From NCBI GenBank assembly GCA_030696155.1, contig JAUYSY010000029.1:4059-68058 (forward strand): 64,000 bases of DNA, written 5' to 3'. Positions within the stretch are counted from its first letter, which is position 1. Every line of letters starts with the position of its first letter. The notes under the pieces were generated by a model. It was not told where the DNA came from, did no database searches, and saw only the letters and a list, made by a program, of their open reading frames with translations. The stretch comes from Alphaproteobacteria bacterium. Lineage in GTDB: Bacteria; Pseudomonadota; Alphaproteobacteria; JAUXUR01. The position numbers and the translations under genes were made by a program. This document shows positions 50,142 to 51,443 of this stretch, in pieces.

Positions 50142-51443
50142 TCAATTAAAATCATTCGGATTATAATAAAAATCGTCACCTAGATCCATATTATCATCAT
50201 TATTATACGAAATATTGTTCAATGAATTATAATCTATAATATTATCAGAATGATGATTAACCGACATTTGATTGTTTGAATTAAATTGAGCACGTTCCCT
50301 TTCGCTATTCATGTCGTTTACAATATTTACAGATAAAAGATCCATCTCGTTCTCTAATATTTTAATGTAATCAATGCCAGGTGCTTCTTTTTCAGGCACA
50401 TTAAGATAATTATTTTGTATATTAAAAACTGATGCATTTTCAATCGATCCTGAAACTCTAGGAATCACAGATTGATGAACAGTTGTCATATGATGATTTT
50501 CTACATTTGTTGATTTTTTATCTGCACCATCCTCAATAATATTATTTATAGTAGATTCTTCCTGTTGATTAGATAAAAACATCATATTAGTAATATTATT
50601 AAATAATTTTTGTTGTACATCCACATCTACATTAGGTGTATTTGAAGTTTTTGAATTATTAGAAGAAAAACTTCTATTGAATAAAGGATTATTAAAAGAA
50701 GGTTGCATTACTTTATTACTTGATTCACGTTCATAAAAAACGTGTAACTCACTCAAATAATTATTTTCTGCATCCTGTGCCATTAAATTTTCATTTTCGT
50801 CAGATGTAAAAACTAATTTATTGTAATGTAACCTACGACATAATAGATGTAATGTTTTATCACTTTCATCACATATGAATGAATGCGTTAAAGAAATAGT
50901 TTTTTTCTCATCTTTGACTTCTTTATAAATACAAAGGCTTATATTGTTCAATAAAGCAAAAGCATTTATAAGTGTATAGGTAAATCCTTCAAGATTTTTA
51001 TCAATATCGCTATCTATATATCTATTAATGGTGTAAGGAAGTTTATATGGTGTATTTTTAAGATTTTTTAAATAATCTTCAACATTATCGCCGCAATCAT
51101 TTTCTATATAAATACGTAATTTTGCATTACGATTTTCATATTGTTCATCTATATCAGCAAGTGCGCTCAGCATCGCATCAATAGCATCATTACGTGAAGC
51201 ATATCCGAACGCCCTGAAACCACAAGCAAGATCTAAAGCAGAAATATTATATTCATTAAATTGAATATTGGGTTGATCGAAAAGCATCCAAGGGGTTGAT
51301 CTATCAGGTTTTGCACTTTCAACAAGACCATCGATAAAAGATGGAGCTGTCGCTATATCATCAATAAAAGTTGCTTCTAAATAATTCGTTGAAGAAAAAA
51401 ATAGAAAAGCTGGAAATAGGATGGTAGAAATTTTTTTTATCAC
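50142..51443 (-). CDS. Secreted hypothetical protein with putative OTU-like cysteine-protease (deubiquitinase-like) N-domain and Asn-rich disordered C-terminal half
   Basis: Signal peptide MIKKISTILFPAFLFFSSTNYLEA (GTG start, GAGG RBS). ALDLACGFRAFGYAS resembles the OTU Cys box (DGNCLFRA). Downstream HLLCRRLHYNKL gives a candidate His box. C-terminal 220 aa are N/S/D-rich low complexity. Confidence 0.45.
   Translation of the reverse strand: MIKKISTILFPAFLFFSSTNYLEATFIDDIATAPSFIDGLVESAKPDRSTPWMLFDQPNIQFNEYNISALDLACGFRAFGYASRNDAIDAMLSALADIDEQYENRNAKLRIYIENDCGDNVEDYLKNLKNTPYKLPYTINRYIDSDIDKNLEGFTYTLINAFALLNNISLCIYKEVKDEKKTISLTHSFICDESDKTLHLLCRRLHYNKLVFTSDENENLMAQDAENNYLSELHVFYERESSNKVMQPSFNNPLFNRSFSSNNSKTSNTPNVDVDVQQKLFNNITNMMFLSNQQEESTINNIIEDGADKKSTNVENHHMTTVHQSVIPRVSGSIENASVFNIQNNYLNVPEKEAPGIDYIKILENEMDLLSVNIVNDMNSERERAQFNSNNQMSVNHHSDNIIDYNSLNNISYNNDDNMDLGDDFYYNPNDFN

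Follow-up and report, generated by a model that had tools for sequence, protein, structure and literature searches.

OTU proteases in bacteria and the gene described here

Bacterial deubiquitinases (DUBs) mark a close relationship with eukaryotic cells and are useful as reagents, many of them having unusual chain-linkage specificities. Effectors of the OTU (ovarian tumour) type, a papain-fold superfamily of cysteine isopeptidases, have been described in Wolbachia, Rickettsia, Legionella, Chlamydiae and Simkania, a general picture that the gene described here leaves unchanged. The Lot-type OTUs of Legionella (LotA, LotB/Ceg23 and LotC) have a large extra helical insertion between their Cys and His elements. 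In the Alphaproteobacteria, wMelOTU and wPipOTU of Wolbachia and RickOTU of Rickettsia have been characterised (Schubert et al. 2020, PMC7396840). The characterised bacterial OTU effectors are predicted substrates of type III (T3SS) or type IV (T4SS) secretion systems, and bacterial OTUs are defined by the catalytic order C...H-aromatic-D/N/E, with the Cys at the start of a helix and the His on a β-strand (PMC7396840). OTU-like peptidases have also been predicted in the amoeba symbionts Odyssella thessalonicensis, Amoebophilus and Waddlia by Zhang et al. 2012 (PMC3482391). Here we describe a gene on the minus strand (50142..51443) of a 64-kb stretch of DNA from an uncultured alphaproteobacterial metagenome-assembled genome (MAG); the whole of this stretch is referred to as the window. 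Residues 25-245 of the product are very probably a divergent OTU-fold cysteine protease domain with an intact predicted active site, as judged from family conservation, profile matches and a structural model. The initial annotation of this DNA had proposed a secreted OTU-like cysteine protease and regarded such an enzyme as noteworthy in this lineage. The protease assignment is supported by the results below. The novelty is smaller than was implied, because the Wolbachia and Rickettsia enzymes have been characterised and the Odyssella peptidases predicted: OTU deubiquitinases are a known kind in the Alphaproteobacteria, and what is new is the subfamily.

Evidence for an OTU fold and a predicted active site

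The domain was compared in a family alignment of 32 domain instances, to which all counts out of 32 refer. The gene, the domain and the codons of the predicted catalytic residues are as follows.

50142..51443 (-): complete open reading frame (ORF) of 433 amino acids (aa) with a GTG start, equal to NCBI MAG protein Q8S31_02335
50709..51371 (-): predicted OTU-fold cysteine protease domain, aa 25-245
51222..51224 (-): codon of Cys74, the predicted nucleophile (ACGFRAFGY), from conservation in 29/32, alignment with NCFYRALGY of OTUB2 and DSSP
50883..50885 (-): codon of His187, another near-invariant His, on the strand before that of His206, conserved in 30/32; the aligned position of OTUD5 is also His
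50820..50828 (-): codons of His206-Tyr207-Asn208, the predicted general base, aromatic gatekeeper and third triad residue, from conservation (His206 in 30/32) and alignment with HYN of OTUD5 and OTUB2

The residue after His206 is aromatic in all 32 domains (Tyr in 17 and Phe in 15), and the one after that is Asn in 25, Ser in 5, Gln in 1 and Asp in 1. The order C...H-aromatic-D/N/E is present, with H206-Y207-N208 as its second part. The initial annotation had quoted a Cys-box, ISALDLACGFRAFGYAS, and a His-aromatic box, HLLCRRLHYNKL, and both strings were found, at residues 67-83 and 199-210. The first contains Cys74, with an Asp at Cys-3 (Asp71); in the second, the His that is conserved in the family is H206 and not H199. 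The pattern [DN]xxCxF[RKHN]A, followed after 80-200 aa by H[YFW][DNE], matches a single place when the window is translated in six frames, and has no match in 100 block shuffles.

A profile built from the 32 domains was searched against 177,635 PDB sequences and gave six matches, all of which were OTU deubiquitinases, with OTUD5 at E=9.7e-5 and 8.9e-4 and OTUB2 at E ~0.1. The predicted catalytic residues were aligned in these matches. The profile segment 'LidAlAyl..nLyiYe' pairs with 'MQAMAEMYNRPVEVYQ' of OTUD5 and 'sHfnkLv' with its 'IHYNSVV', while 'nsCgFrafg' pairs with 'RNCFYRALGY' of OTUB2 and the His-box with its 'SHYNIL'. The same His-box alignments were obtained with hhalign at E ~1e-4. 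Narrower queries against the PDB were uninformative: a profile of the eight close orthologues returned spurious designed-repeat-protein matches only, and phmmer with the domain of P0043, the most OTU-like member of the family, returned chance IsdB matches only.

AlphaFold2, run with the 32-sequence alignment and no templates, gave a model with a mean predicted local distance difference test score (pLDDT) of 91.9 and a predicted template modelling score (pTM) of 0.87, whereas the eight orthologues alone gave an unusable model (pLDDT 48.7). The former model has the OTU α/β fold. The initial annotation had named a predicted structure lacking a papain-like Cys-His arrangement as the outcome that would count against it, and the prediction was favourable: in DSSP assignments a helix (model residues 51-54) opens with Cys74 and a β-strand (model residues 183-189; model numbering is full-length numbering minus 23) with His206. 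A His-aromatic 'gatekeeper' is reported to be 477-fold enriched in DUBs and in proteases of Gly-Gly ubiquitin-like proteins (UBLs), where it contacts Gly75 of ubiquitin (PMC7391069).

Structurally, the closest known proteins are the OTUD-type and viral OTUs (OTUD3, OTUD5/DUBA, yeast Otu1/Otu2 and the nairovirus vOTUs; MEROPS C85, PF02338). Identity to these is just 11-17%, and PF02338 detects no member of the present family. Next to the OTUD-type and viral enzymes the family has extra conserved elements: an N-terminal helix and hairpin with the motif 'PDRxxPW', the near-invariant His187, and a long C-terminal helix with the pattern A..E[NE]..L.EL. The present protein also bears a Sec signal, whereas the eukaryotic and viral OTU enzymes are cytosolic. 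The otubains (OTUB1/OTUB2; MEROPS C65, PF10275) have a strikingly similar Cys-box (CFYRALGY in OTUB2, CGFRAFGY here), and the profile aligns both the Cys and the His of OTUB2 across positions 27-190. In contrast to wMelOTU, wPipOTU and RickOTU, which match Pfam OTU motifs, the family described here is invisible to Pfam and carries predicted Sec signals.

Modules of the protein and the selection acting on them

The reading frame was confirmed as first described, and its product matches 'hypothetical protein Q8S31_02335 [Alphaproteobacteria bacterium]' at 100%. Outside the protease domain three further modules were delimited.

51372..51443 (-): predicted Sec-type signal peptide, aa 1-24 (MIKK / ISTILFPAFLFFSS / TNYLEA|T), from sequence features and conservation among orthologues
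50205..50708 (-): Asn/Ser/Asp-rich low-complexity linker, aa 246-413, probably disordered, from composition, divergence and dN/dS
50145..50204 (-): acidic-aromatic C-terminal motif, aa 414-433 (MDLGDDFYYNPNDFN), from conservation and dN/dS

The N-terminal signal peptide of the initial annotation is borne out by the sequence. In the segment MIKKISTILFPAFLFFSSTNYLEA|T a basic n-region is combined with ~14 hydrophobic core residues and a site obeying the -3/-1 rule, all read from the sequence itself. Predicted cleavage after Ala24 is kept in the orthologues as [END]-[AS]|T, and AXA-type sites follow signal-peptide-like N-termini in nearly all full-length family members. The same segment could instead be an uncleaved signal anchor, by which the protease would be tethered to the bacterial inner membrane or to a host or vacuolar membrane. 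Several bacterial DUBs have hydrophobic helices and no recognisable T3SS or T4SS signals, and membrane tethering has been proposed for three enzymes with transmembrane helices, ChlaDUB1, SnOTU and SnVTD (PMC10643670). However, the h-region here is short for a transmembrane helix, and the small residues at -1/-3 in almost all members (LEA|T, AWA|A, SNA|M, VFA|S and AWS|S) are typical of signal peptidase I, and we consider an anchor quite unlikely.

The C-terminal part has the low-complexity, Asn-rich character that was first noted, although it spans 188 aa rather than 220. It comprises 20% Asn, 11% Ser and 8% Asp, whereas most other ORFs of the window have 3-8% Asn. Its last 20 residues carry the motif M-D-L-G-D-D-F-Y-Y-N-P-x-D-F and are kept in seven of the eight sequences of the orthologue alignment, the exception being P0008. 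Compared with its closest orthologues, the protein is 93-94% identical in the OTU domain, 53-56% in aa 246-413 and 90-95% in the last 20 residues. The linker has many indels in more distant orthologues, yet the reading frame is unbroken in every one of them.

Ratios of nonsynonymous to synonymous substitution (dN/dS) were estimated by the Nei-Gojobori method against two orthologues. The values were 0.15 and 0.13 for the OTU domain (aa 25-245), 0.99 and 1.03 for the linker (aa 246-413), and 0.26 for the C-terminal 20 aa (aa 414-433). The OTU domain is under strong purifying selection, and the linker is an Asn-rich spacer that is constrained in composition and neutral in sequence. These values bear on the possibility that the gene is a non-catalytic or decaying ORFan, a product of AT-drift at low GC with a chance motif. 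The GC content of the gene (0.28, compared to 0.35-0.42 in its housekeeping neighbours), the neutrally evolving tail and the lack of curated family matches would fit such an origin. Low GC is common to the other orphan ORFs of the window that bear signal peptides. A chance motif agrees poorly with 40 homologues among 1.84 billion proteins in which the Cys and His are near-invariant, and with the high-confidence OTU-fold model and the intact frame of all orthologues; because of the purifying selection on the domain, we exclude a decaying ORFan, which we hold to be very improbable.

A family of homologues with predicted Sec signals

Apart from the protein itself, a word-indexed search returned seven homologues that are 45-77% identical to it, and a homologous-protein search with the 32-sequence alignment gave seven close orthologues and nothing further. 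When GTDB genomes were searched with the alignment of eight orthologues, no relative was found; the MAG and its relatives are therefore not species representatives there. The wider family emerged when 1.84 billion representative proteins were searched exhaustively with a hidden Markov model (HMM) of the domain; this gave only 40 proteins, 21 of them with E <1e-10. Most of these matches are 600-2000 aa long, with the domain directly after an N-terminal signal-peptide-like segment. In the large members the OTU domain is followed by a conserved middle region, by Ser/acidic and basic (KRKR-type) stretches, and by long arrays of divergent repeats resembling tetratricopeptide repeats (TPRs; 'AQAYIGLGNARY'). 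Some large paralogues (P0009, P0016, P0018, P0020 and P0034) have two OTU-like domains in tandem. The catalytic Cys is replaced by Ser in the first copy of P0016 and P0034, which suggests that this copy is a pseudo-enzyme or a ubiquitin-binding module ahead of a predicted active one.

Every named member of the family is annotated as a 'hypothetical protein', and the sources are MAGs of Alphaproteobacteria or Pseudomonadota, one being labelled only 'bacterium'. The taxonomic exception is a distant match, Aasi_0608 of Candidatus Amoebophilus asiaticus, an obligate amoeba symbiont. The window has one copy of the family, and at least two further paralogues are encoded elsewhere in its genome: Q8S31_05365, of 1243 aa and with two domains, and Q8S31_09315, of 1307 aa.

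Gene neighbours vary between orthologues. In a sister MAG (GCA_030680745.1; locus L001) the orthologue is syntenic, with Sua5 and a 217-aa gene on one flank and pepP-prmA on the other, and the paralogues of the sister MAG are dispersed among housekeeping genes (Lon, GatCAB, MCP, PBP2/RodA, Ccm and COX2). A more distant orthologue, at locus L003, lies between flagellar genes and ftsZ. At locus L004 the 641-aa homologue P0008 stands beside a signal-peptide-bearing leucine-rich repeat (LRR) protein, and the two genes may form an effector gene cluster. The LRR protein, encoded directly downstream of P0008 at L004 2279..5119 (+), has 946 aa and combines a signal peptide and over 15 leucine-rich repeats (LRR_14 E=1.5e-36) with a further C-terminal domain of ~350 aa.

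A predicted isopeptidase and its possible targets

By fold and active site, as predicted from sequence and model, the protein belongs to the OTU superfamily and fails only the criterion of a match to a curated HMM. On balance we favour the reading that it is a Sec-exported, highly diverged OTU isopeptidase that removes ubiquitin or a UBL from proteins of a eukaryotic, probably protist, host. We infer its catalytic activity and its ubiquitin/UBL substrate from the fold, the triad and the gatekeeper; a route from periplasm to host, and the host itself, are presumed. Activity and substrate are also suggested by effector-like features of the family, namely the TPR-like arrays, the basic clusters, the Amoebophilus member and the LRR neighbour. 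Activity on host ubiquitin is proposed by analogy, because the characterised bacterial OTU effectors act in this way.

According to this proposal the protein would be exported by Sec and its signal peptide cleaved after Ala24, giving a mature protein of ~409 aa made up of the OTU domain, a flexible Asn-rich linker of ~170 aa and the short acidic-aromatic C-terminal motif. Some further route would then release it from the periplasm. Cys74, at the N-terminus of its helix, would be activated by His206, itself oriented by Asn208, and Tyr207 as the aromatic gatekeeper would limit substrates to those with Gly-Gly C-termini. On host proteins that bear ubiquitin or a UBL, the predicted triad Cys74/His206/Asn208 would thereby hydrolyse the bond that follows the Gly-Gly end of the modifier.

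Several results weigh against this proposal. The ORF has no Pfam or NCBIfam match, none of the 32 family domains reaches the Pfam OTU or otubain models even at E<=1, and a single-sequence phmmer search of the PDB with the ORF found no match; the sequence likeness to known OTUs is marginal. The failure against curated models reflects the sensitivity of those models and not the biochemistry. Further, a Sec signal brings a Gram-negative protein to the periplasm only, and the DNA available showed no system for onward secretion. The organism, an uncultured MAG, has genes for flagella, chemotaxis and respiration, and an intracellular lifestyle is therefore not established. Its LepA is 68-74% identical to that of almost every alphaproteobacterial order, which gives no finer placement.

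The Sec signal is the main oddity of the subfamily among bacterial OTUs. Burkholderia TssM, likewise a Sec-signal-bearing bacterial deubiquitinase that reaches host cells, is secreted by the type II pathway and provides a Sec-dependent precedent; it differs in having a USP rather than an OTU fold and has no sequence kinship with the present protein. A second such precedent is pertussis toxin, which enters its type IV system from the periplasmic side.

The near-universal Sec signal peptides of the family, which deliver only to the periplasm, would also suit an OTU-fold protease that acts on a non-ubiquitin, non-host target, either as a periplasmic or extracellular processing peptidase or as an inter-bacterial toxin. 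OTU peptidases delivered by Sec and the type II secretion system (T2SS), with processing or toxin roles, have been predicted in Odyssella, an alphaproteobacterial symbiont of amoebae, and in free-living actinobacteria (PMC3482391), and the genes of the present organism are not strongly host-restricted in look. Polymorphic toxins with OTU modules are characterised by a C-terminal toxin domain that varies and by an immunity gene next to it, and neither is found here. Rather, the OTU domain is N-terminal and follows on the signal peptide, instead of standing before or at a variable toxin module at the C-terminus; a neutral low-complexity linker with a 20-aa motif makes up the C-terminal half, which holds no toxin domain. 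Nor is there a conserved downstream immunity-like gene, since pepP is convergent and the context varies among orthologues. The universal His-aromatic gatekeeper, in turn, indicates Gly-Gly substrates. We consider a non-ubiquitin target unlikely.

The set of Zhang et al. 2012 resembles the present family in consisting of computational OTU-like predictions in protist-associated bacteria. Among its members are proteins with predicted Sec/T2SS delivery in an alphaproteobacterium and proteins in which the domain is joined to TPR, Sel1 or ankyrin repeats, and Amoebophilus, one of its sources, also has a member of the present family (Aasi_0608). Compared by description with the Odyssella proteins, the domain here always comes right behind the signal peptide, with no immunity gene seen beside it. 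New in the subfamily are its invisibility to Pfam and NCBIfam, the constant position of the domain behind a Sec signal, the extra conserved elements, and the presence of several paralogues per genome, some with TPR-like arrays. The OTU superfamily is thus extended to a branch that current domain libraries miss, and a group of uncultured alphaproteobacteria whose locus is annotated entirely as 'hypothetical protein' is flagged as probably protist-associated. The systematic Sec signals before OTU domains raise the question of how host ubiquitin would be accessed. A bolder reading, to which we give little credence, would make the protein the founding member of a lineage-specific, Sec-exported and Pfam-invisible OTU clade with at least three paralogues per genome, the large members of which would combine one or two OTU domains, a conserved middle domain, basic clusters resembling nuclear localisation signals and 10-25 TPR-like repeats. 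Such a clade would represent either a new two-step delivery of DUBs of unusual specificity into protists, by Sec and a further outer-membrane step, or, more radically, the first OTUs with native substrates outside the eukaryotic cytosol, in the periplasm or on the cell surface, that are not ubiquitin.

Gene surroundings and other genes of the window

Two signals flank the protease gene.

51450..51453 (-): GAGG ribosome-binding site, 6 nt 5' of the GTG, read in the sequence
50035..50054 (-): terminator-like hairpin followed by a T-run, ~90 nt past the stop codon, bidirectional with the convergent pepP

The downstream neighbour is pepP, in convergent orientation, and a convincing sigma-70 promoter was not found in the 109-nt gap 5' of the protease gene. 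The surroundings bear on whether the protein could be the peptidase of a bacterial system for ubiquitin-like (Ubl) conjugation or anti-phage defence of the Bil/Bub type, acting on a prokaryotic Ubl. Defence operons for bacterial Ubl conjugation do contain deconjugating peptidases. In Bil/Bub-like operons, E1, E2 and Ubl genes are co-located with a cytoplasmic peptidase, whereas neither the window nor six related loci have E1, E2 or Ubl neighbours, there is no PADLOC match, and the signal peptide removes the protein from the cytoplasm, the site of such systems. A role in Ubl conjugation or defence is excluded because of this genomic context and the signal peptide, and we attach next to no probability to it.

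A 216-aa gene in the same orientation lies directly upstream, at 51553..52203 (-), with a GC content of 0.29 and a marginal match to DUF2334 (polysaccharide-deacetylase-like). It was considered as a partner of the protease and rejected: although present in the sister MAG, it is missing beside the L003 orthologue, and it is probably unrelated to the protease.

Several other ORFs of the window were inspected. The orphan ORF at 31395..33404 (+; 669 aa, GC 0.31) has a signal-like N-terminus and a polyproline run, VPVPPPPPPLPPLL, followed by two to three repeats of S[IM]E[LF]QGQ[FL].KLK[SP]AKDRE. By eye alone, the polyproline run and repeats recall the profilin-binding and WH2 modules of bacterial actin nucleators; Pfam gave no support to this reading, which was set aside. 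A second orphan ORF, at 54937..57465 (+; 842 aa, GC 0.265), has a signal peptide and three 'SDQL.LT..K.NNE' repeats, with no Pfam match. It is missing from the otherwise syntenic L001 locus, where the genes for carbonic anhydrase and a methyltransferase adjoin, and is therefore a lineage-specific insertion. The ORF at 25475..28006 (-; 843 aa, GC 0.28) has a weak TPR-type match and a basic KKPKLKKRK cluster near its C-terminus, and is possibly another eukaryote-directed protein.

A large block at 36786..45628 (+) comprises ORFs of 387, 1035, 1035 and 486 aa, the last two of which correspond to the ACR_tran and OEP genes of the syntenic L001 locus. The block probably encodes an efflux system of the resistance-nodulation-division (RND) type. 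One would not expect such a system in a strongly reduced endosymbiont, and a facultative lifestyle is suggested by it.

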